IMG/VR virus record: IMGVR_UViG_3300047311_000323
Coordinates: 64,001-128,000 of that record
Length of the DNA stretch: 64,000 bases
Source: a virus
Direction: 5' to 3' (one strand)
Shown here: positions 8,431 to 25,563 of the stretch, piece after piece
Layout: every line of letters begins with the position of its first letter
Position numbering within the stretch: position 1 is the first letter of the stretch
The notes under the pieces: generated by a model
The model's database searches: none
What the model saw: the letters and a program-made list of their open reading frames with translations, nothing else
Told to the model about the DNA's origin: nothing
Translations under genes and position numbers: made by a program

Positions 8431-9144
8431 TTACTTAGAAGATTTGGATGACTTCTTGTCGTCCTTCTTGTCAGACTTCTTTGGATCGCTCTTCTTATCC
8501 TTTGCAGAATGAGAATCGCTCTTCTTGGAATCTTTCTTGTCGTCCTTCTTCTTAGCGAATGGATTAGACTTCTTGTCCTTAGCAGACTGAGAGTCACTCT
8601 TCTTTTTCTTGTCAGACTTCTTGGTATCCTTTTCCTTCTTCTTGGCTTCAACAGTCAAGGAAGCAATCTTTAGGACAAGGGCAGATCCACGACCGAGGCC
8701 AACGGAGTCTAGAGCGGCAGATGCAGTTAGCAAGCTGTCGATAGCTACGTCGAATGCAGCAGAAGCTTCTAGATCATCGTCAGCAGAGCTGTCGTCAGAA
8801 TCAGAGTCCTTCTTTGCCTTACGAGCATCGTTGTCATCATCGTCATCAGCATCGCTAGAATCAGAATCGGAATCCTTCTTTTTGCGTGCATCGTTGTCAT
8901 CCCAGGCGCTGGAGGAATCTGAATCAGAATCCTTCTTTGCCTTACGGGCGTCATTGTCATCATCGTCGGCCATGCAGCTATCTTTATCTGCGTGACTGGA
9001 ACCGCACTTGGAACAGGAATGCTTTGCATCATTCATGTCTTGTGCATACTTGTATTGAACATCGAACAACGACTTGTGTTCTTTGCTGTTTAGAACCGCA
9101 TTCATAGTTGCGGCTACAAAATCTGATACGCTCTGGTTTTTCAT
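8431..9144 (-). CDS. Low-complexity acidic/basic internal head protein (possible DNA-condensing protein)
   Basis: Three DDNDARK(A)KKDSDSD repeats, then a Lys-rich C-terminus with two SDSxSAKDKKSxP units and NPFAKK. GAGGA SD. Confidence 0.75.
   Translation of the reverse strand: MKNQSVSDFVAATMNAVLNSKEHKSLFDVQYKYAQDMNDAKHSCSKCGSSHADKDSCMADDDDNDARKAKKDSDSDSSSAWDDNDARKKKDSDSDSSDADDDDDNDARKAKKDSDSDDSSADDDLEASAAFDVAIDSLLTASAALDSVGLGRGSALVLKIASLTVEAKKKEKDTKKSDKKKKSDSQSAKDKKSNPFAKKKDDKKDSKKSDSHSAKDKKSDPKKSDKKDDKKSSKSSK
8790..8970. repeat. Three imperfect coding tandem repeats of about 60-66 bp
   Basis: The units encode DDNDARK(A/K)KKDSDSD(S/D)SxA. They are in frame, with no unique spacers. Confidence 0.85.
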
Positions 9145-9172
9145 TTGTAGTATCCTCGTTCTAGGTTAAGCT

Positions 9173-11719
9173 TTAGAACACACCCTTTTTATTACCAAAG
9201 AGGTTTGACAACTGGGTATAAGAGTCATCCTCGACTGCTTGAGCTGGAGAGAATTCTCCATCAACTCTGAGACCAACTTGTGGCATGCTTCCTGCAGACT
9301 TACGCAGCATACCTGGTTCATGACGGGCAACGACCTTCTTGAGGGATTCGAATGCGTCATCATTAAACTTCATAATCTGATCAACTTGATCTGAGATGGT
9401 TACTCTGTCATGCTTGCACAGACCACGGTCAACCATGTCATAGGTTAGTTCATAGGCACGAGCTAGCTTAATTCTGAAGGTGTTTAACTCTTCTTCCATA
9501 GCTGACTTGACATGTTCCTTCACCATTTCACTGGCAAATTCACTTCCGCCATCAACTTCACCGAAGTACTTCTTCCAGTAAGCAACAGCTTCCTTGTCCA
9601 ATCCGTAAGATGCTAGAGCATCAACGTCATTTGGATCAAGCTTGCCCTCAGAGACGAGTCTCTGAATGACTTCTGCTTCTTTGCGAACCTTTGGTGGTGC
9701 CTTAGCAACCTCCAACATTCTCTTGTTTACTTCTGGGAGGGTCTCAACCAATCCGAGGCTGTCGGATGGCTTTACTTCCAATTCAGTTTGTCCATCGGCT
9801 AGTCTGTCGGCCTGGTCTAGCATATCACTAAACTTTTGCTTGGACATGTCTTGGATTTCTCCGTCTTCTTCTTTACCGAGAGCGTCAGCAGCCAACTTGG
9901 CCCTGAGAGCTGCACGGCCTGCTCTATCATCAAATGATGCCATAGTTAACTTCTTTCCGGCCAACTCTGGTGGTACTTTCTCACCTTGTTCAAAAGTGAG
10001 ATCGTTGTCGTCAGCCAAACCTTCTAGTAGTGGTTCTGCATGTGGCTCTTCGTGTTCGTGTTCTTCACCGCCCACATCTCCATCTAGAAGACCTTCGAGT
10101 CCATCCAAACCACCCAAACCTTCGCCACCCAAATCGCTGTGGTCTTGGTCATCGCCCATCATTTCTTGGACGGCATCCAAATCTGCGTTGGTGTCGTTGA
10201 TTAAGCCCATTAAGTCGCCGCCATCTGCGGAGTGGTTATCCTTCATGCTCATAGCGTCTCCTTCGTCTGAGGCAAGTGATTCGAGTTCTGACTCAATCTC
10301 TGCACGCTTGACAATGGCTTTAGTACCACGAGCATACTTGACGAATGCGGTCATTAGCTTAAAGCCGTCTGCTACAGCAGTCTTGGCTTCGTTTAATGCA
10401 TCGTCTACAATATTGCCTACAAAATCTTGGTTAGAATCAGTTACAGCGCCCTTGTCGTACATTCCAACAATCATATCTAGTTCTTGCTGGTGTTCAGTTA
10501 GTTCTGCAATAGCTTCTTTCATTGCATGAGTTAGTGCGCCATTCAATTCTCTTCTTAGAGTATTGAGGGTTGCTGTGCTGAAGTTATCAGAAGCAGAGGA
10601 CTCCATGGAGTCTTTCTTCTTCTTTGCATCTTGGTCGTCAGCAGCCATTGGGCCACCGGCTGGACCGCCTACGCCACCTGCTGGAGGAGCGCTACCTGCT
10701 TCTGGACCGCCCATTTCAGCTTGTTCACCAGTTAAGGCACGAACAGCTTCTACTAGGTCAGAGCTTAGGTCTCTTACCTTTTCGGCAAGTTCAACTGCAC
10801 TCTGCTTTGGGTCACCAGACTTGCCTGCGTCTTCTGCTGGAGGACCAGCATCTGGACCGGCATCACCACCTGGAGGTGGGGCACTGGATGGGTCACCGGC
10901 TGGAGGGCCGGCTGGTGGAGCACCACCTGGAGCGCCTTGTGCTTTCTTAATTAGTTTGCTTACCGCATCAGCACCATTAACTTTGACCTTTTCGATCAAC
11001 TTGGCACCGAAGTCCTTGGTAGCAATTGAGTCATATAGAACGTCAGTGTTTCCACCGGATAGTTCTGCAACAGATGCAGTCAACAATAGCTTGTCACCTA
11101 GGAATACTTCCCAAGCGCTTCTGCCCTTGTTCTGGGTGCCGTTGCTGTTGGCAGCCTTGACGAATCTGGCTCTTAGTTGAGCGCGTGCTAGCATCTGCTT
11201 ACGCTTCAATTCATCCTTTGGATCAGCGGAGGATGGAGAAGGGTGCATGCCGTCTACTGGACCAACACCTGGGAATGGTGGTTGACCAACCATGTGCTTG
11301 TCTTCGTATTCACGTAGTTCTTCGTTAAGCTTATCTTTTGGATACTTAACTTTACCTGGGGTTGGCTCGTTTACGCCGCCACCACCTAGGTAATAGGCTT
11401 CTTTGCTTCTCAAAGCGTCTTTTGCCATATTGACAATGGAGTTACGCTTGAGGGTGCGCTCTTCTGCTTCTGCACGAGCGAGCATCTTCTTACGCTCTAA
11501 CTCGCCAGATGGGTCAGCCGAAGCTGGAGAAGGGTGCATACCATCGACTGGACCTACCTCAGGGAAAGGAGGCTGACCCGTCATGTGCTTGTCTTCGTGT
11601 TCACGAAGTTGCTCATTGAGTCCGTCTTTTGGATATTTAACTTGGCCTGGAGTTGGCTCATTAACGCCACCGCCACCCTGGAAATAAGCTTGCTTATTGA
11701 TTTCTTTTGATCCGGACAT
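9173..11719 (-). CDS. Putative nested in-frame scaffold product (848 aa) from internal start Met405
   Basis: AAGAGGAACAC-ATG at 11719 is in frame. The product begins MSGSKEINKQAYFQGGGG, mirroring the start of gene 24490..25563 (MSVNKKGYFQGGGG). Confidence 0.55.
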   Translation of the reverse strand: MSGSKEINKQAYFQGGGGVNEPTPGQVKYPKDGLNEQLREHEDKHMTGQPPFPEVGPVDGMHPSPASADPSGELERKKMLARAEAEERTLKRNSIVNMAKDALRSKEAYYLGGGGVNEPTPGKVKYPKDKLNEELREYEDKHMVGQPPFPGVGPVDGMHPSPSSADPKDELKRKQMLARAQLRARFVKAANSNGTQNKGRSAWEVFLGDKLLLTASVAELSGGNTDVLYDSIATKDFGAKLIEKVKVNGADAVSKLIKKAQGAPGGAPPAGPPAGDPSSAPPPGGDAGPDAGPPAEDAGKSGDPKQSAVELAEKVRDLSSDLVEAVRALTGEQAEMGGPEAGSAPPAGGVGGPAGGPMAADDQDAKKKKDSMESSASDNFSTATLNTLRRELNGALTHAMKEAIAELTEHQQELDMIVGMYDKGAVTDSNQDFVGNIVDDALNEAKTAVADGFKLMTAFVKYARGTKAIVKRAEIESELESLASDEGDAMSMKDNHSADGGDLMGLINDTNADLDAVQEMMGDDQDHSDLGGEGLGGLDGLEGLLDGDVGGEEHEHEEPHAEPLLEGLADDNDLTFEQGEKVPPELAGKKLTMASFDDRAGRAALRAKLAADALGKEEDGEIQDMSKQKFSDMLDQADRLADGQTELEVKPSDSLGLVETLPEVNKRMLEVAKAPPKVRKEAEVIQRLVSEGKLDPNDVDALASYGLDKEAVAYWKKYFGEVDGGSEFASEMVKEHVKSAMEEELNTFRIKLARAYELTYDMVDRGLCKHDRVTISDQVDQIMKFNDDAFESLKKVVARHEPGMLRKSAGSMPQVGLRVDGEFSPAQAVEDDSYTQLSNLFGNKKGVF

Positions 11720-12931
11720 GTGTTCCTCTTGTATTTTGGTAGTAGAAGTTTTTGCTAACTTATCCAAGCTCTTCTTCATTTGACTTAACGTAGCTTCAAT
11801 TGATGCAGTAACTTGCTGAAGCTCAGCCAATGATTCCGCCTCTACATCTGCGGATGCAAGCCTAATGGCTTGCGGAGTTTGGAGAGCCAATCCAGAATCC
11901 GGGGTTGTGCCAGTATCCATGGCTTGCGAACCCGACGATTGATTATATGTTGAAGAATTAGTATCTTTTCCAGAATTTTTTACGTTCTTGAATTCTTGCA
12001 CCTTACGAAAGGCTTCATCTAATTCTGTCTTGAAACTATCAATGTCACTTGCTTCGACGTTGAATTGAGCGCTTCCGCCGCCTTCTTCGCCATTTGGATC
12101 TGACACGTTTACATTAGCACTAAACTTGAGATCGGCCATTTTTTCTAGTTCTTTGGCACGATTCTCTAGATAAGTATTCATTGTATTTGCTGCAGCAATG
12201 ATGTGTTTGATGTTGGCTCTAGGATCCGCACCATTTACAACGATAGATAGCTCAATTGGATTGAGGTCTACGTTGATTTCACCGTAGCAAGTCTTGTTCT
12301 TCATATGACTGCAGAAGTCAGCTTCAGCGCGAGCGACTCGACCGCAATCATAACAGATGGCTCTTCCAACAGCAGTGCCCATAGATACGCAGTTAGAAAC
12401 GCCGGTTGAAATTTGTCTAGCTAATTGAGGGAATCCAGCCTTATCTAAGGCGCACAACGCAATCACTCTCTTGAGGCTGCGATCGTAATAGGTATCAACG
12501 ATAAAACCTCTAACATGGTCAACCGAACTCGATTTATGATCCACGCATAGAGGCTTGTGTTTCCACTTCTTGTAAGCTTTGGTTAATTCTGCTTCTGGAA
12601 AAATATCTCCATTGGAATTCTTATATGGCTTAATGTTAGGGTCATTTGATGCCCATTTCCATGTACCACCACTAGTATCCCAGCCTACTTCGACTGGTTC
12701 GCCCTTGAGCGTTAGCTTTGGTGTGCCATCTTCGTTAAGCGCTGCGGCCTCGGCGGCATGCATCATAACGGCAGAGAAATATAGGAAGTCTTCAGCTTTA
12801 GGTGCAATCTTCTTTAGGTTAGTTGCGAACTTCCTAAAGTTCTCCAATACCTCAGCACTCACCTCAGGAAGACATGATTCCATGTTCTCTAGTTTAATTT
12901 CGTGGGCTTCGCCTAATTTAATAATGGGCAT
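9173..12931 (-). CDS. Prohead maturation protease fused to a long scaffold region (1252 aa)
   Basis: N-terminal NGDIF...LCVDH...VSMG...CYDCG...FCSH...IELSIV..GADP pattern (His/Ser protease with Cys cluster). The remainder is acidic, coiled and Pro/Gly-rich, ending in a short amphipathic helix (YTQLSNLF). Confidence 0.85.
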   Translation of the reverse strand: MPIIKLGEAHEIKLENMESCLPEVSAEVLENFRKFATNLKKIAPKAEDFLYFSAVMMHAAEAAALNEDGTPKLTLKGEPVEVGWDTSGGTWKWASNDPNIKPYKNSNGDIFPEAELTKAYKKWKHKPLCVDHKSSSVDHVRGFIVDTYYDRSLKRVIALCALDKAGFPQLARQISTGVSNCVSMGTAVGRAICYDCGRVARAEADFCSHMKNKTCYGEINVDLNPIELSIVVNGADPRANIKHIIAAANTMNTYLENRAKELEKMADLKFSANVNVSDPNGEEGGGSAQFNVEASDIDSFKTELDEAFRKVQEFKNVKNSGKDTNSSTYNQSSGSQAMDTGTTPDSGLALQTPQAIRLASADVEAESLAELQQVTASIEATLSQMKKSLDKLAKTSTTKIQEEHMSGSKEINKQAYFQGGGGVNEPTPGQVKYPKDGLNEQLREHEDKHMTGQPPFPEVGPVDGMHPSPASADPSGELERKKMLARAEAEERTLKRNSIVNMAKDALRSKEAYYLGGGGVNEPTPGKVKYPKDKLNEELREYEDKHMVGQPPFPGVGPVDGMHPSPSSADPKDELKRKQMLARAQLRARFVKAANSNGTQNKGRSAWEVFLGDKLLLTASVAELSGGNTDVLYDSIATKDFGAKLIEKVKVNGADAVSKLIKKAQGAPGGAPPAGPPAGDPSSAPPPGGDAGPDAGPPAEDAGKSGDPKQSAVELAEKVRDLSSDLVEAVRALTGEQAEMGGPEAGSAPPAGGVGGPAGGPMAADDQDAKKKKDSMESSASDNFSTATLNTLRRELNGALTHAMKEAIAELTEHQQELDMIVGMYDKGAVTDSNQDFVGNIVDDALNEAKTAVADGFKLMTAFVKYARGTKAIVKRAEIESELESLASDEGDAMSMKDNHSADGGDLMGLINDTNADLDAVQEMMGDDQDHSDLGGEGLGGLDGLEGLLDGDVGGEEHEHEEPHAEPLLEGLADDNDLTFEQGEKVPPELAGKKLTMASFDDRAGRAALRAKLAADALGKEEDGEIQDMSKQKFSDMLDQADRLADGQTELEVKPSDSLGLVETLPEVNKRMLEVAKAPPKVRKEAEVIQRLVSEGKLDPNDVDALASYGLDKEAVAYWKKYFGEVDGGSEFASEMVKEHVKSAMEEELNTFRIKLARAYELTYDMVDRGLCKHDRVTISDQVDQIMKFNDDAFESLKKVVARHEPGMLRKSAGSMPQVGLRVDGEFSPAQAVEDDSYTQLSNLFGNKKGVF
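11183..11690. repeat. Two 72-codon direct repeats in the protease-scaffold gene
   Basis: The two Y(F/Y)xGGGGVNEPTPG...MLARA units have 59/72 identical residues and are separated by 25 aa. Confidence 0.95.
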
Positions 12932-12936
12932 GCGTA

Positions 12937-13092
12937 TTAGCTCCCTGACTTCTTCTTGGAAGAATCAGTTGACTCATCAGATTGTTTGATGAGATCTTTT
13001 GAACGATCTTTGACAGCTTTCTTTTGCTCTTCATTGAGTTCTTCGCCGTCAACGACGTTAAGTATTTTTCCATCACCGTGTTTAATAAACAT
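12937..13092 (-). CDS. Small 51-aa hypothetical protein (absent from ORF track)
   Basis: MFIKHGDGKILNVVDGEELNEEQKKAVKD...KKSGS*. GGAGAG SD. Fills the gap immediately upstream of the protease gene. Confidence 0.75.
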   Translation of the reverse strand: MFIKHGDGKILNVVDGEELNEEQKKAVKDRSKDLIKQSDESTDSSKKKSGS

Positions 13093-13197
13093 AAACTCTC
13101 CAAATGGGAGACCACACAGGTATAATGTAATATTGCTACAAATTTCCGGTCTGAGACTGAAAACTTCATCTATTATACAGCGATATTACCATTTTAA

Positions 13198-13848
13198 TCA
13201 TCTACCTGACGGGTTCCTCTCCTCTACTGCATCATTTAGCTGTTCTTGCCTCTGATTATATAGATCCACGATTAGTGGGGTCTTCTTCTCTATTTTCATC
13301 TGCAAATCATTACTAATTGCATCTACCCAACTACTTGCCAGTATATTAGTTTGAATATGAGATTTAATTCTTTCATCAATGATTTCATCAATCTCATCGC
13401 ACTGTTTTTGAATACCTTCAATAGCGGCTGTTACATCTTTCACAAACTCTTTAGACTGCAAATCGTTAAACAAATCTGCAAACTGATTAACTGAAACTTC
13501 CAAATCATCCACTGAAGCAATAAATGATTTCATCAGTTTAAGTGTTTGAGTATCGCTTTCAAATGTCTGCATAATGTTAACGCAGTCAAAAGATACCTTC
13601 TTAAACTTATCAAAATTCTCAATGGCCTTATCTCTAAAACGTCTAATGACAGCACGAGCTTTCATTACGTCTTCAGGCGTCATATCTGGGTTGTCTTTGA
13701 ATGGAGTCTTCATAATATTCAAATGATCGGCAGCCTGTATTAGAAACCTCTCAGCAGCCTTAAAATACAATAGCGCCTTCTCTGCCTGCTGCTTTTCGCT
13801 GTCAGACACATTATAGCTCATTTGTACCGAGTAAGACTTTTTAATCAT
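13198..13848 (-). CDS. Hypothetical all-helical protein
   Basis: 216 aa with a heptad-like helical pattern. Directly abuts the upstream gene. Confidence 0.7.
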   Translation of the reverse strand: MIKKSYSVQMSYNVSDSEKQQAEKALLYFKAAERFLIQAADHLNIMKTPFKDNPDMTPEDVMKARAVIRRFRDKAIENFDKFKKVSFDCVNIMQTFESDTQTLKLMKSFIASVDDLEVSVNQFADLFNDLQSKEFVKDVTAAIEGIQKQCDEIDEIIDERIKSHIQTNILASSWVDAISNDLQMKIEKKTPLIVDLYNQRQEQLNDAVEERNPSGR

Positions 13849-14619
13849 TCAATGACCTACCTCTGAGAAGAAACCATCCATACGTTCCACTGGTCCGAAA
13901 CCTCGCTGCCCAGCATCATTGTCATATTCTCCCACATTAGGGATTGTGACACTCTCACTAGGATCATGCCTAAATAGTGGTGGGCTATCATAATTTTCGC
14001 GAGTGGGGTATTGATCCAAATCTGATGGGTACAATGAATCTACTGGGTCCTGCTTAGTCTGGTTCAAGTGTGGAGAGAACGATCCTTGATGTCCTTCATC
14101 CAAGAAAGTGTCACGGTTATCACCAATATACTCTCGTTCATTGGAGACTATATCAGCACTATTAGTATCTTTATCGGGCTTGCAGTGACGGATAATCTGT
14201 TCGAACATATGCATGCTCTGAGGCGGGATACCAACACCAAAGCCTAATGCCTTAGCTTCTTGAATTGCTTTCTCTGGGTCTTTACCAAGAAATCTACACT
14301 CTACTATTGCAGAAGCTAATCCAGTTCTATCCTTACCTTCATGGCAATGAACAAATGTGGGGCCACCTTCTAGAAATAGCTTTTTCATATCCTGAGATAA
14401 AAAATCATACAAGCTTTTTCTAGTATGATCGATATACAGTTTGATATGATTGATTCCTAACATCTTACAAGCTCGATCAATCTTCTCGCCTGTTTCTTGA
14501 TCTAAAGATACAATCTTTTTAATACCCAACTTATCTTTAAGCTCAAGTACATCTTTTGGAGTAGGGCCAGAACCACGATACAATACATCAGGAATAACTG
14601 AACGGAATCTTCTAATCAT
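13849..14619 (-). CDS. Cys-based dual-specificity/tyrosine phosphatase family protein
   Basis: LYRGSGP N-terminal motif and catalytic VHCHEGKDRTG (HCxxGxxR). About 90-aa acidic C-terminal extension. Confidence 0.9.
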   Translation of the reverse strand: MIRRFRSVIPDVLYRGSGPTPKDVLELKDKLGIKKIVSLDQETGEKIDRACKMLGINHIKLYIDHTRKSLYDFLSQDMKKLFLEGGPTFVHCHEGKDRTGLASAIVECRFLGKDPEKAIQEAKALGFGVGIPPQSMHMFEQIIRHCKPDKDTNSADIVSNEREYIGDNRDTFLDEGHQGSFSPHLNQTKQDPVDSLYPSDLDQYPTRENYDSPPLFRHDPSESVTIPNVGEYDNDAGQRGFGPVERMDGFFSEVGH

Positions 14620-18259: not shown

Positions 18260-20143
18260 TCACGCTGGTGGTGGTGGACCTGGTGGAGCGCCGCCTCCTG
18301 GTGGCATTAATCCGGCTGAAGCTCCACTTGGTGGAGGTGGAGGAGGACCGCCTGGGCCACCGCCTGGAGGAGGTGGTGGTGGACCACCTGGTAGACCCAA
18401 ATCTGGCATTCCGCCGCCTGGTGGTGCTCCGCCTGGAGTCTCTCCTGGTAGTGGGGCTTCTTGACCAGCTCCCTGTTGTTTTGGCTCTGGAATTTCATCC
18501 TCGTCATCCAATGCACGGAGAGAGTTGAGGTCCATAGCTTCAAGGGCGGCCGTTTCCTTCTTGGCAATTGCGTTCTGAACATTTTCTTTACGCATCTTGC
18601 GTACTTCGTCTTCATACTCAAGACCCAAAGAACGGTATAGGGTGTGAATAGAGACTCTCTTCTGGTCGGCTTGACCCTGAGATAGAGTAACTAAGCTGTT
18701 GATGTAGTCACCTGCATCAAACAAGCTCATGTGGTTCCAATCAATTTCAGGAACGATAAGTTGTTTCTCACCACCAGAGTAGTCATAGAAGCCCTGGATC
18801 TTGGAGATTGGAGCAAAAATCTTAGTCTTGAGCCACTGAGACATCATATTACGGAACTGCATGTATCTCTGACGTAGAACGTCCAAAGCTACACCGCCGT
18901 TAGCGTAAGTGGTATCAGAACCACCGTCCATCATAACTGGTGGAACGAACAAACCAACATAGATTTCCTTCATGAGCTGAGTAATATCGCCGGAGATATC
19001 GTAGATACCTTGTCCCCAACCGACTCTCTCAACAGCAACGCCTTCATGGGTGAAGATTTTGAAGTCTTTGTCGTATTGCGCTTCTTCGAAGACGCCTCTC
19101 CATGCTTCAAGGTCAGCAAAGGTTGGCTTGTAGTCAGCCGAACCAATCTTAACCAAAGTCAATGGGTTGATCATGTTATCAGACTGGGCGTACTTAGATT
19201 CACGTAGCTTATCAAAGAGCATCAACTGACGGAAAATACAGACTGGAAGGCCAGTGCCTCTAATTTCGTAAGGGCTGATACGACGAGCTAAGTGTGATAC
19301 ATGGAAGTTGTCTAGTGGAATGTTTTCTCCACGTCTTACAGAGTCGATAATGTGCTGGTTAAGCTGCTTACGCTGTTCAATATCGGTTGGACGGTTTGAG
19401 AAAATGATTTTCTTGAGGTTCTCATCAGGACGAAGCATGATGATTGGTTCGCTGGCTACGACCGTACGTTTGACAATCATGAAATCTGGGTTTTGAATGT
19501 GTAGGCGACTCCACTTGCCCTTACCTTCATCCAGTTCTGCATAAACAAACGCTTCTCCTAAGAGCCAATACTCTTGGGCAATCTGTACACAGATGTTCAT
19601 TAGGTCAATCTCTTCGATCATGTCATCGAAGAACTTTTCAATATCCTTATTAGGACACTTGATAGATAGTTTGCTGATTGGGTATGTGCTATGCAAACTG
19701 ACAGCATTATGCACGAATGGGTTCAATGCAAAGAAGCTTCGGCACCATGCATTAATAGTTGCACGGTCACGCGGTAGGTTCAAGTTGCTGTTGAGCCAAA
19801 GTGGGGAATAAACTTCAGGAGTCTGCTTGACGGTGTCGCCATGGATACCACGGAACATACCACCAGAGCTAGACACTACCTGTGAATTTTTCTTGAAGCC
19901 TACGGAGGAGACAACGTTAGAAGCCGTAGTAGGCGCGTTGGCCAATGAAAGTTTGTTATAACTTGGGCCAGAGCCATCCCTGAAGTATCCCTGTTCGACC
20001 TCGTCAGAAAGAATAACTCTTCTTTCTCCGGAGACGCCACTTGCCATAATAGCACTTACTTGTGGGGTAGTGGATCTACCTGATAAGAATCTTGCTGAAA
20101 AGGATGGGGCTTCCCCTAATCCCGATTTTTTAATACCAGCCAT
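18260..20143 (-). CDS. Portal protein
   Basis: 627 aa adjacent to the terminase. Core FFALNPFVHNAV...HLARRISPYEIRGTG...LVKIG...GIYDI pattern. Gly/Pro C-terminal tail. Confidence 0.8.
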   Translation of the reverse strand: MAGIKKSGLGEAPSFSARFLSGRSTTPQVSAIMASGVSGERRVILSDEVEQGYFRDGSGPSYNKLSLANAPTTASNVVSSVGFKKNSQVVSSSGGMFRGIHGDTVKQTPEVYSPLWLNSNLNLPRDRATINAWCRSFFALNPFVHNAVSLHSTYPISKLSIKCPNKDIEKFFDDMIEEIDLMNICVQIAQEYWLLGEAFVYAELDEGKGKWSRLHIQNPDFMIVKRTVVASEPIIMLRPDENLKKIIFSNRPTDIEQRKQLNQHIIDSVRRGENIPLDNFHVSHLARRISPYEIRGTGLPVCIFRQLMLFDKLRESKYAQSDNMINPLTLVKIGSADYKPTFADLEAWRGVFEEAQYDKDFKIFTHEGVAVERVGWGQGIYDISGDITQLMKEIYVGLFVPPVMMDGGSDTTYANGGVALDVLRQRYMQFRNMMSQWLKTKIFAPISKIQGFYDYSGGEKQLIVPEIDWNHMSLFDAGDYINSLVTLSQGQADQKRVSIHTLYRSLGLEYEDEVRKMRKENVQNAIAKKETAALEAMDLNSLRALDDEDEIPEPKQQGAGQEAPLPGETPGGAPPGGGMPDLGLPGGPPPPPPGGGPGGPPPPPPSGASAGLMPPGGGAPPGPPPPA

Positions 20144-20224: not shown

Positions 20225-22108
20225 TTAGAACCTTCTCGGTACATAACCGCTCATTACCATGGGTTTATTCAGGTTTTTAGGGGTATGAAGCATTGGATTG
20301 TTATTTGTGAAGCCTCGACTAACTAAGAATTTAAAAGCCAAATAAGCGTTCAGCAGTGCCATAAATCCGTCGTTTGGTGTTCCGCCCTTGACATAATGGA
20401 CTGTGTGGTCACCATATTTAGAAATAGATGGCTTGAGTTCCATACTACAACAATGGTCAATTAACCATGCAACCTTCTCATAATCTCCATATGGGAATCT
20501 AATCAGACCTTTCTTCATTTGGTCATAAAGCTCACTAATATAGAAGTCTCTCTCGAAGATAATTTCTTTTGGAAAAGCCTCATGATTAAACTTAACATGA
20601 TCATTAACTCTGTTATGAGCACGAGAGACTAGATATCTATCTCCATAAGTGTTATGTAGTGTAGAAGAAAAGTCATTAGAGTAACCAATGTCTCCAATGG
20701 TTAGCTGCACACTATACTGTCTCATCAATTGATCAATGAGCCCCTTTTTGCTTTCCGGATCATTTCGTTTAAACTTAGTAGCAAATTCAATTGACAGTAA
20801 GTTAGATCCTTTGGTTTGCAAAATAACAGCGGTACTATAAGATTGGCCAGCAGGTTTTACTCTTTCTGGGTCAGCTAATTGTTCTAGGTCAGAACGGGCA
20901 CCATAATCGATTCCCATTACCGTCAACTGCTGCATTGGTCCTTTGGTTGGAAGAATACGTGGGCTATATTTTCTTTCGAAGTCAGCACATAGAGTACGTA
21001 CCTCGTCTGGAGACATCGGACTTGCATCTCCCTGATAGAACTCTCCAAGAACTTCGTTTTGGAAAACACGCTCAGTATTGATTGGATGACGGCCCGGCTT
21101 TTCCTTATCGATATCTTCTCTAGTGAATTTGGGCATGTAAAGCTGATTGATATGGAAACCAATCATATCACAGTCTGGATCGTTTGGATTCTTCAGAGCA
21201 ACCCACTTGCCACGTTCTTGTGCTTGTAGTTTATCTTGTTCATGGCCGCATTTTGAACACTTAACTACTTTACCATGAATCCAAACTTTCTCCCAATCAT
21301 CAGAACCTGGCGTGTAAAGTGGGAAATGCTCTTCACATTTCTCACAGCCTAAGTAGTAATATTGCTGAGAAGAAGACTGCCACATCTTGTGGTAGTCAGA
21401 TCCTTTACGACGGGGCGTTCCAAAGAAAACTTGTACTCCCTGTGTAGGTCTGCCATATTTGGCGTTGGTTAGAATTTTAAGAGCGTTTCCAATAGCCTGA
21501 GTCGTTGTCTTCTGAACTTCGTCAAAGAATAGAATATCAGCGGTACGACCCATGATTCTGTCGGCGTCTACGCCAGTCGACTCTACCCACAAGTGGTTTC
21601 CGCCAATGAACTGTTTAAAATGCAAAGAATCGTTGGTAGGAGAAGACTGGTCTAGTAATTGCTGCATGAAAGACTTTGGACGAGAGCCCTTGTTTTCGGG
21701 AGTTCCTTCAGGGACCTTAGCCATATTGATCATTTGGTTTAGCTTGGTCTTAGAATAGGCCGCAGCTAACTCCAATTGAGGGAAAGCGTGGATGATACGG
21801 ATTGGTGGACGGAACCCGTCTCCGAACAAACCAGAGCCCATGAAATACATTTCCAAAGCACTAGCCATGGTAGTAGCTCCTACCTGACGGCCTTTGACTA
21901 AGATAACTGGCTTAGCATCTGGCTCTAATGCTTTAATACCAATGTATCTGTAAATATCTGAGAAGGGCTTATATCCATTACCACTCAATCTGAATGGTTC
22001 ACCTTCTAATGTTAAATTCTCTTGACAAAATGTTACGGGGTCAATCATTGAGAGTTGTCTTTTCATCTTCTCAAAGATTTCCTTATTTTCAATATTTATA
22101 CTGGGCAT
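20225..22108 (-). CDS. terL: Terminase large subunit (lambda gpA-like family)
   Basis: Walker A region VKGRQVGATT, Walker B LFFDEVQ, GTP coupling motif, CEKC/CSKC zinc motif, FQNEVLGE, and RNase H-like MGIDYG nuclease motif. Confidence 0.92.
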   Translation of the reverse strand: MPSINIENKEIFEKMKRQLSMIDPVTFCQENLTLEGEPFRLSGNGYKPFSDIYRYIGIKALEPDAKPVILVKGRQVGATTMASALEMYFMGSGLFGDGFRPPIRIIHAFPQLELAAAYSKTKLNQMINMAKVPEGTPENKGSRPKSFMQQLLDQSSPTNDSLHFKQFIGGNHLWVESTGVDADRIMGRTADILFFDEVQKTTTQAIGNALKILTNAKYGRPTQGVQVFFGTPRRKGSDYHKMWQSSSQQYYYLGCEKCEEHFPLYTPGSDDWEKVWIHGKVVKCSKCGHEQDKLQAQERGKWVALKNPNDPDCDMIGFHINQLYMPKFTREDIDKEKPGRHPINTERVFQNEVLGEFYQGDASPMSPDEVRTLCADFERKYSPRILPTKGPMQQLTVMGIDYGARSDLEQLADPERVKPAGQSYSTAVILQTKGSNLLSIEFATKFKRNDPESKKGLIDQLMRQYSVQLTIGDIGYSNDFSSTLHNTYGDRYLVSRAHNRVNDHVKFNHEAFPKEIIFERDFYISELYDQMKKGLIRFPYGDYEKVAWLIDHCCSMELKPSISKYGDHTVHYVKGGTPNDGFMALLNAYLAFKFLVSRGFTNNNPMLHTPKNLNKPMVMSGYVPRRF

Positions 22109-24489: not shown

Positions 24490-25563
24490 TTAGATATTCC
24501 ACTTATCCTCATAGATATCGGTACCAATATCAGAAGTTCCAGTAAATGGCTCTTCTACTTGCTCGGTTTGGTCAGCATCGTGACCTTCTGGATCTACGCC
24601 ATCTGGCAAGCCAAATAAACCGTCTTCAGATGGGGTTAGGTACTTATTAAAAAGTTTTTGCAGGATATCCTCGTGAAGACCTCTAGCTGGCTTTGTCTCT
24701 TCGTCATAATCTCTACCGAAATTAAGGGCATCAGCCGAACGACCATCAAAATCGTTTTCTGGTAAATAAGAGTGCTCACCAGCAATCTGTCCAGATTGGA
24801 ATGAACTCTGGAAAAGCTCAGGTCCTATATCTCCTGGGAAAAGAGAATAGTCATCATTGCCTGCAGGACCTAACGGACCCACTAGTCTTGGCTTATGATA
24901 CTGCTCTTCACCAGGATAAATCATTTGGTTATAGTGGTTTACCTGTTCATCAATCGGGAAGTCAATATGATTGACATCCTTTTTCTTCTTCTTTTTTGGA
25001 CCAGGGGTGCCTTGATATGGACTGTTTTTCCAATCATAGATACTGGTGCCATGCTCTTTAGGCGGAAGCATATGATCGGCATTGTCATCGGCAAAGAAAG
25101 CGCCTGGACCGTGATCTTCCTCTTCCCTGAACTCTTCAACACTGTCAACTTTGCCATCGCTCATTTCTTGATAGAGACCTTTTCCTAAATCATAATTAGG
25201 GCCTGCGGTCTTGATTATTCTTTCAAAAATAGCTGCACGGGCTTTAATGCCAGGATTTTCTTTAGTACGTTTGCCAGAATCCAATTGCCAAGAATCGTCG
25301 GCTTCATAGCGACCCTTCATCCTACTACGCCTTGCTTCTAGAAATTCCTGGACGCTATCGTAATTTTGTAGACCGTGGTATCCCGTGCCGGGGCCGATGT
25401 CCTCCATGCCGGGAATTGTATACAAATCGTAGTTGTAATAAAATGGTTCTTCAAAACGTGGCTGAACAACCAAGGCCGGATCGGACTTGTATTTCTTTTC
25501 ACCAGGCGTTGGTTCGTTGACCCCGCCTCCACCTTGGAAATAACCTTTCTTATTGACTGACAT
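24490..25563 (-). CDS. Head protein carrying a third YFQGGGGVNEPTPG module
   Basis: Start refined to MSVNKKGYFQ (ATG 25563, AAGGA SD). 17/21 identity to protease repeat 1 over the module. Confidence 0.8.
   Translation of the reverse strand: MSVNKKGYFQGGGGVNEPTPGEKKYKSDPALVVQPRFEEPFYYNYDLYTIPGMEDIGPGTGYHGLQNYDSVQEFLEARRSRMKGRYEADDSWQLDSGKRTKENPGIKARAAIFERIIKTAGPNYDLGKGLYQEMSDGKVDSVEEFREEEDHGPGAFFADDNADHMLPPKEHGTSIYDWKNSPYQGTPGPKKKKKKDVNHIDFPIDEQVNHYNQMIYPGEEQYHKPRLVGPLGPAGNDDYSLFPGDIGPELFQSSFQSGQIAGEHSYLPENDFDGRSADALNFGRDYDEETKPARGLHEDILQKLFNKYLTPSEDGLFGLPDGVDPEGHDADQTEQVEEPFTGTSDIGTDIYEDKWNI

Follow-up and report, generated by a model that had tools for sequence, protein, structure and literature searches.

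A nested in-frame design, in which one gene encodes both a protease and the scaffold, is already known from phage lambda (C/Nu3), herpes simplex virus (HSV; UL26/UL26.5), cytomegalovirus (CMV; UL80) and the archaeal tailed virus HFTV1. Lambda C/Nu3 and phage Mu I/Z have one internal start and genes of about 440 codons, and the lambda C protease belongs to the ClpP/S49-type fold family. In phage T4, protease gp21 and scaffold gp22 are encoded by separate genes. Here we describe an open reading frame (ORF) of an uncultivated megaphage, located on the minus strand at positions 9173..12931 of a 64,000-nucleotide (nt) stretch. This stretch, hereafter the window, comprises bases 64001-128000 of the 198-kb IMG/VR virus record IMGVR_UViG_3300047311_000323. 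The ORF is probably (with a probability of about 0.8) a nested 3'-co-terminal protease/scaffold gene that gives three products by means of two internal starts, each led by a Shine-Dalgarno (SD) site.

As in lambda and Mu, the products would share their C-terminus and the protease is tethered to scaffold. The gene differs from both in having two internal starts, 1252 codons and Pro/Gly-rich modules absent there, and from lambda C in that its protease is of another fold family. Lambda is named as a nested example in bioRxiv 10.64898/2026.09.13.751334, according to which HFTV1 (gp17/gp17.5) obtains its scaffold from an in-frame start inside the prohead protease gene, as demonstrated by ribosome profiling and mass spectrometry. 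HFTV1 differs in its two tiers, its archaeal host and its experimental demonstration, whereas the window gene is known from sequence comparison alone.

Likeness to herpesvirus UL26/UL26.5 and CMV UL80 concerns the protease fold (VIA Z 8-10.5 to the proteases of varicella-zoster virus (VZV), pseudorabies virus (PRV), HSV and human cytomegalovirus (HCMV)), the fusion of protease ahead of scaffold, and the nested, 3'-co-terminal arrangement of in-frame products. The nested protease/scaffold pattern with a separate promoter for UL26.5 is pan-herpesviral (PMC11565193). The CMV nested family is four-tier according to the passage of PMC4032930 that cites Welch et al. 1991, and the window gene resembles it in having, by prediction, more than two tiers. 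In contrast, herpesviral short forms come from separate promoters and transcripts, whereas the window gene conserves SD sites on a bacterial-type mRNA; moreover, there is no detectable sequence similarity between them.

Bacillus phage G has a separate protease gp19 (300 amino acids, aa) and gp21 (486 aa), the latter two genes downstream. The window protease is homologous to gp19, and the C-terminal helical domain of the same ORF is related to phage G gp21. The protease also has the fold of T4 gp21 (Z 10.2). Here, unlike in phage G and T4, a single ORF with internal starts holds both protease and scaffold-like part. P2 gpO likewise combines an N-terminal protease with a C-terminal scaffold in one polypeptide; it is described as synthesised only in full length and then self-cleaved (bioRxiv 10.64898/2026.09.13.751334), whereas in the window gene selection maintains internal start sites. 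Judged by these comparisons, the new features are a very large megaphage clade, a protease of assemblin/gp21 fold, two SD-led internal starts and three predicted tiers.

Conservation of the internal start sites

9173..12931, minus strand: protease-scaffold ORF, 1252 aa, 134.7 kDa
12941..12945, minus strand: SD (GGGAG) of the full-length start by sequence reading, 9 nt before ATG 12931
11723..11730, minus strand: internal SD 1, AAGAGGAA, in codons Gln401-Glu402-Glu403
11717..11719, minus strand: internal start 1, Met405; predicted product of 848 aa, 90.6 kDa, beginning MSGSKEINKQAYFQGGGG
11183..11690, minus strand: two Pro/Gly-rich modules (AY[FY]xGGGGVNEPTPG...MLARA), 60/73 residues identical
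10257..10264, minus strand: internal SD 2, GAAGGAGA, in codons Glu890-Gly891-Asp892
10250..10252, minus strand: internal start 2, Met894; predicted product of 359 aa, 39.3 kDa

Two in-frame SD-led ATGs, at 11719 (Met405, 848 aa) and 10252 (Met894, 359 aa), had been pointed out in an earlier note on this DNA, and their coordinates are correct. They are directly preceded by caAGAGGAAcac and GAAGGAGAcgct, respectively. For comparison, a close-clade set of 22 non-duplicate IMG/VR loci (65-90% nucleotide identity) was used, together with two loci of 36-39% aa identity.

Met405 is present in 19/19 homologues, the codons CAA-GAG-GAA before it are identical in all of them, and the SD energy is invariant. 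Only 7 of the 43 invariant-Glu columns have an invariant codon, and the sole invariant GAG (28% usage) is that of Glu402. Met894 is present in 20/20 homologues, 19 of which have identical GAA-GGA-GA before it; the one exception reads GAT-GGA-GA (GATGGAGA). Spacing between SD 2 and its ATG is held at 5-8 nt despite insertions or deletions of codons. Among 49 invariant Gly columns, only two codons are invariant, both of them GGA (20% usage): one is Gly891 within SD 2 and the other is Gly407, just after Met405.

In a scan of pairwise synonymous differences over 1108 windows, the SD 1 window displays 0 differences while 192 are expected (observed/expected ratio 0.00, 0.2nd percentile), and the SD 2 window has a ratio of 0.22 (1.5th percentile). 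Both sites lie in open RNA. The 50-nt window around Met405 belongs to the least structured 4% in the gene (mean -1.8 vs -6.6 kcal/mol; GC content 28% vs 45% for the gene), and RNA around Met894 is within the least structured 11% of windows. When 40 internal Met positions were compared, only at Met405 and Met894 did a universal Met coincide with a strong SD that does not vary and with a deficit of synonymous change to either side. Synonymous ratios for these two are 0.27 and 0.35 upstream and 0.38 and 0.62 downstream, respectively; the upstream ratio is near 1 at every other internal Met. The comparison of homologues shows purifying selection acting on the nucleotides of both internal SD-ATG sites. 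The earlier note had named a lack of internal Met and SD in homologues among the findings that would refute its reading; in the close clade, both SD-ATG pairs turn out to be conserved at synonymous sites, so that this test does not refute it.

Further, we examined more distant relatives. The Met that precedes the first module is conserved to at least 90% among 48 diverse representatives (protease-domain identity 41-72%). What comes ahead of this Met differs in sequence (QEET, EEK, KEELN, SEELE, KEDIK, KGYN, LEAN, KGTT and others) and in distance. Varying residues together with a kept Met are the signature of nucleotide rather than protein constraint. Of the two modules in the ORF, only the first is preceded by Met; the second never has one, in relatives either. 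At eight loci with 36-57% identity, the residues before Met are KGYN, LEAN, KGTT, TGQL, KDLT, EENT, KEKE and KKDS, and a purine-rich SD-like core (AAGGGT, AGAGG, AAGGGA, AGGA, AAGGA, GGAGGA, AAGGAAA and GAAGGA) is found 5-10 nt before ATG in every one. Around their Met405-type start the RNA is very open; for SD rank, these loci give a combined P of 0.005 (Fisher).

A metagenome scan for the second site retrieved 63 loci with the KYARG landmark, including 43 non-redundant lineages in which Met follows KYARG by 24-36 aa. GGA encodes the upstream Gly in 33/36, compared with 25% usage (binomial P 3.6e-17), and 37 of the 43 lineages have an SD scoring -5 or better. Here again, the residues before Met vary (EGET, DGDT, NGDT, SGDSD, HGDH, GDGDFN and others). 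Database proteins beginning exactly at the Met894 equivalent (P0128, P0131, P0143 and others) were not counted, as these are gene-caller choices on contigs that start inside the gene.

Split and interrupted variants of the gene

A split form of the gene was found in L041, a short-read contig of 2.6 kb. It consists of a protease gene of 437 aa, which ends ...MDYETLRVRAKARREYWLKA-stop, then an HNH endonuclease ORF (L041:1515-1845; Pfam HNH, E 1e-7) and a gene starting MNSARIKARARARRAYWQGGGG, the product of which begins MNSARIKAR...AYWQGGGG. The first residue of this product aligns with internal Met432 of the fused relative P0331. In the fused gene (gtGGAGGAtgaccatATG / gtGGAGGAtgaccatATGaattctgcgaga) the SD is coding and encodes V-E-D-D-H-M; in the split gene (cattGGAGGAtgtaaacATG / cattGGAGGAtgtaaacATGaattctgcgaga) GGAGGA is now intergenic. 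The coding GGAGGA of the fused gene is therefore the SD of the free-standing gene. A relic copy of Met persists in the protease half of L041, where the SD is lost (-2.5 kcal/mol). The arrangement of this contig shows the Met405 unit working as the start of a separate gene. The earlier note had asked for internal starts that occur as separate genes in homologues, and the Met405-type start of HNH-split L041, opening its own gene, is such a case.

Another variant, L051 (short-read contig, 1240-1300), has TAA in place of a GAA codon, in frame and 14 codons ahead of the Met894-type ATG. Long products are thereby cut, and GAAGGAGA is kept before the ATG. Should this phage be viable, the internal start would be the only possible source of its C-terminal 337 aa. 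Variants of these two kinds, split by HNH or carrying a nonsense codon, represent natural experiments. Homing-endonuclease splits, combined with synonymous codons that do not change, allow internal starts to be recognised from sequence alone.

Other apparent splits were set aside. Among shorter homologues, almost all split forms are contig-end fragments or frameshifted pieces of error-prone long reads with garbage tails. L040, split into 404+487+212 aa with overlapping ends on a pilon-polished contig, was not counted as evidence.

A second HNH fragment is located in L041 (3-182) just upstream of the protease gene. Homing endonucleases appear, from such contig sequences, to target the protease-scaffold locus.

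Proposed products and alternative explanations

We infer that three co-terminal proteins (134.7, 90.6 and 39.3 kDa) are synthesised, in a ratio that would depend chiefly on how strong the three ribosome-binding sites are relative to one another. The duplex energy of the full-length-start SD is -7.4 kcal/mol. The full-length 135-kDa protein would consist of an N-terminal serine protease tethered via two modules and linkers to a helical C-terminal scaffold domain. Initiation at Met405 (SD AAGAGGAA) would yield a 91-kDa protease-less scaffold, and initiation at Met894 (SD GAAGGAGA) a 39-kDa C-terminal piece. The shared C-terminal part would act as scaffold. Since the C-terminus would be common to all three products, the protease would enter the procapsid by means of the free scaffold's own domain and alongside it. 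A [KR]-x-[AGS] motif is conserved just before each module in the ORF, and self-cleavage probably also acts, perhaps at these motifs.

If this is correct, an annotated "hypothetical protein" of about 1200 aa from this family is a protease plus probably two extra scaffold proteins, and gene catalogues and proteomic databases for these phages would therefore miss two products per genome. The nested protease-scaffold design of herpesviruses and lambda would be extended to phage capsids for genomes of about 0.5 Mb, and it would pair the herpesvirus protease fold with bacterial SD-based production of short forms.

Short products could arise mainly from internal promoters, as in herpesviruses, one of them at or near the TATAAT at 11942-11947. 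They would then have sub-genomic mRNAs, and their ratio would be set at transcription. The sequences relevant to this explanation are the following:

11942..11947, minus strand: TATAAT, not supported as a promoter
11879..11983, minus strand: invariant synonymous blocks, 165-265 nt upstream of ATG405; observed/expected 0.00-0.32
10328..10340, minus strand: invariant block AAGTATGCTCGTGG (K-Y-A-R), about 84 nt upstream of ATG894; observed/expected 0.09

The TATAAT is indeed present where the earlier note had placed it, at 11947-11942 of the minus strand, and separate promoters do serve UL26.5 (PMC11565193) and the CMV nested family (Welch et al. 1991, as cited in PMC4032930). The invariant blocks before both ATGs would also suit internal promoters. 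However, a scan for sigma-70-type promoters on the coding strand inside the gene gave no match, and no -35 element at 16-18 nt was found for TATAAT 11942..11947. The hexamer is kept in only 3/19 sequences (the window, L004 and L005); the rest have TCTAAT or TTTAAT, which lack the position-2 A required by the scan. Its chance expectation in 3.7 kb, derived from genome-wide frequency, is about 0.7 per strand, and one is present. The location of TATAAT stands; its role as a promoter is not supported. Internal promoters would, in addition, supplement the internal SD-ATG sites and not replace them. We consider it unlikely that the short products depend mainly on such promoters.

The 87 upstream regions of the genome show an 8-14-fold enrichment of TATATA, ATATAT, GTTATA, GATATA and TATAAT; for TATAAT, TATATA and GATATA this also counts in favour of internal promoters. 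In addition, ATAAGT sits 16-23 nt before several starts. The AT-rich hexamers together with ATAAGT are candidate phage promoter elements without -35. A data-driven motif search found only AT-rich hexamers enriched, none of which could be tied to the internal starts.

The frozen blocks deserve attention irrespective of TATAAT. Nine non-overlapping windows have a synonymous observed/expected ratio of 0.30 or less, and all of them fall into codon clusters 317-351, 388-416 and 866-892. The blocks at 11879-11983 read AAAGATACTAAT, TAATCAATCGTCGGG and GGATTCTGGATTGGCTCTCCAAACTCCGCAA. It is possible, albeit speculative, that the blocks before both internal starts are dedicated control elements, either phage-specific internal promoters or an RNA or operator switch masking and unmasking the internal ribosome-binding sites. 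In that case, the megaphage clade would actively regulate the protease:scaffold:short-scaffold ratio during infection, not via fixed SD strengths, and the gene would represent a regulated gene-in-gene system with three outputs, of a kind not described for phages.

An Rfam scan of 9000-13300 retrieved nothing at E 1 or better. Long-range pairing of GAUUCUGGAU with AUGUCNGGAUC, with UCC pairing to the SD, was proposed by RNAalifold with a covariation term of only -0.26. Its partners are inconsistent in 27 homologues and its z-scores are ordinary extreme values, so the pairing was rejected as unsupported. An antisense sigma-70-like promoter candidate within the conserved blocks, TTGATT-17-TATCTT on the plus strand, matches at only 8/12 positions, and its first -35 T is changed in several homologues. 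[KE]-D-T-N-S was rejected as a protease cleavage motif (DTN observed 11 times vs 12.7 expected). Three copies of an 11-mer, AAGATACTAAT, are present in the genome, at window positions 14161 and 11957 and at genome position 37859; each lies on the gene strand and in frame, where it reads [K/E]-D-T-N.

Alternatively, the ORF might give a single 135-kDa polyprotein, with scaffold pieces released only by autoproteolysis as in P2 gpO. The SD-ATG text would then be a repressor operator, an RNase or pause site, or a relic of an old gene fusion. Self-cleaving protease-scaffold fusions are known (P2 gpO; bioRxiv 10.64898/2026.09.13.751334), cleavage could take place at the conserved [KR]-x-[AGS] ahead of each module, a fused module of L049 lacks Met, and the constrained blocks show that other nucleotide-level functions reside in the gene. 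On the contrary, a relic would decay, but in more than 40 lineages purifying selection acts on the sites. The bases held constant correspond exactly to an SD core, placed at SD distance from a Met that every close homologue has, in open RNA, and the spacing remains in the SD range when codons are inserted. The same GGAGGA-ATG starts a real separate gene in L041. Cleavage and internal initiation are, moreover, not mutually exclusive. A polyprotein as the sole product is decidedly improbable.

Several points weigh against the preferred reading, i.e. three products made by SD-led internal initiation. Further constrained blocks lie upstream of each site, and a regulator's operator, a processing site or another nucleotide-level function could in principle constrain the same bases. 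The most distant clades have no Met894-type start or a displaced one. In L029, L031 and L035, GGAGA-ATG is found at the Met908 position instead, 14 codons further on; in L034 and L038, neither the Met894-type start nor GGAGA-ATG at the Met908 position was found. L041 is a metagenome contig of 2.6 kb, and the nonsense variant L051 is a single case that may be a defective variant. In L049 (750-1600), the module (KLAYYQGGGG) is fused behind another protein without Met, so that a module need not come with a start of its own. Because homologues share phylogeny, sequence counts overstate independent events.

Finally, 7% of the 1179 internal in-frame ATGs in the 198-kb genome equal the SD of Met405 (-6.0 kcal/mol), and 1.1% match that of Met894 (-8.8). 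An SD of -5.8 or better is found at 6 of the 42 internal ATGs of the ORF, four of them besides Met405 and Met894. In a single sequence, the SD-ATG pattern is not beyond chance. Chance as the whole explanation, with SD-like strings as by-products of Glu-Glu and Glu-Gly-Asp codons and Met residues as ordinary conserved ones, can draw on that 7% and on the 42 internal ATGs, but it is hardly credible, since the minor codons GAG (28% usage) and GGA (20-25% usage) are fixed specifically at the SD sites, the encoded residues vary while the purine-rich core stays, and the pattern is seen at no other Met in the gene. Codon-level invariance excludes the alternative, raised in the earlier note, that the SD-like text merely reflects Glu/Gly codons. 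Comparative data across homologues lift both SD-ATG pairs far above chance.

Protein domains, family and genomic setting

12182..12832, minus strand: prohead (capsid maturation) protease domain, residues ~34-250
12536-12538, minus strand: protease residue His132
12383-12385, minus strand: protease residue Ser183
12305-12307, minus strand: protease residue His209
9944..10144, minus strand: acidic linker, predicted to be disordered, residues ~930-996; AlphaFold (AF2) predicted local distance difference test score (pLDDT) <50
9323..9745, minus strand: all-helical C-terminal domain, residues ~1063-1203; AF2 pLDDT 86-97
24490..25563, minus strand: separate gene opening with a third module copy; product start MSVNKKGYFQGGGGVNEPTPG, MSVNKKGYFQGGGG

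The protease domain matches phrog_18299 head maturation protease (E 2.5e-12) and is 35% identical to phage G gp19 (E 1e-27). Its AF2 model, constructed from 48 diverse homologues, has a pLDDT of 86.3. The best VIA match of the model is VZV protease 1vzv (Z 10.5, root-mean-square deviation (rmsd) 2.8 over 117 residues). T4 gp21 (5jbl) follows with Z 10.2 and rmsd 2.8 over 132 residues, and the top 36 VIA rows are all assemblin or gp21 chains. Foldseek alone gives an E of only 6e-3. H132 (VDHK) and S183 (VSMG), the putative catalytic His and Ser, are invariant in the 48 sequences, and their motifs align with VDHQ and VSMG of phage G gp19; His209 (CSH), a candidate for the third catalytic residue, is a consensus residue, not an invariant one. 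The test against curated families yielded no Pfam-A match at E 0.01 or better and no PDB sequence match. Within the T4 gp21/herpesvirus assemblin fold, the window protease forms a sequence family of its own.

Within the protease domain, Cys193, Cys196 and Cys207 are invariant (AICYDCG...DFCSH; window 12305-12355, residues 193-209), a three-Cys feature common to phage G gp19. Together with consensus His209, these residues may, by their pattern, form a small metal site, i.e. a zinc-binding insert in the protease domain.

The protease is followed by a linker, the two modules, a stretch rich in Pro, Ala and Gly and, around KYARGT, a helical region that is conserved. In an hhalign comparison, ORF residues 1147-1201 match residues 279-333 of phage G gp21 (probability 85%, E 6e-6). 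The helical C-terminal domain is the putative scaffold and coat-binding part. In the fold search with the C-terminal model, rows pointing to scaffolding proteins were weak, all with E >0.001, and the search of BFVD gave no row at E 0.001 or better. Pfam and PHROG contained no scaffold match for this part.

The start of the Met405 product (MSGSKEINKQAYFQGGGG) resembles that of gene 24490..25563 (MSVNKKGYFQGGGG), as the earlier note had recognised. In homologues of the latter gene, the module comes directly after an SD-led ATG in stand-alone proteins. In the distant relative L049, a reading frame of 249 aa lies upstream of the homologue of gene 24490..25563 and is fused to it.

The minus strand carries nearly all genes of the window. 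The protease-scaffold gene belongs to a head module, where it lies downstream of terminase (20225..22108) and portal (18260..20143). Terminase excepted, neither the ORF nor its neighbours have a match in Pfam, and BLASTP with the major capsid protein of phage G detected no capsid gene among the downstream ORFs. CheckV completeness of the source record is 45%. Since contigs carrying close homologues of the ORF are 460-511 kb long, the source is a megaphage of about half a megabase, with a genome of roughly 450-500 kb.

The SD of the full-length start (12941..12945) sits within the 3' end of a 51-aa upstream ORF (MFIKHGDGKIL..., window 12937-13092, minus strand), which stops 5 nt before the protease start. 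A gene of 45-56 aa occupies the same position in relatives. ORF 12918..13169 (83 aa), which was listed mechanically, is probably spurious.

The family comprises 1460 detectable representatives, 201 of them at E 1e-30 or better. More than 500 homologues are full length, mostly 1100-1350 aa. The fused form of this size is the rule, nearly all of the top 150 representatives being full length. About 20 of these best 150 reach 1400-1665 aa due to an intein (Hint + LAGLIDADG) interrupting the protease domain; they include P0119, P0218, P0221, P0231, P0233, P0246, P0249, P0260 and P0329 (L036:301-5007). The intein insertion point is located near residues 104-107 of the window protein, adjoining invariant N105 and D109.

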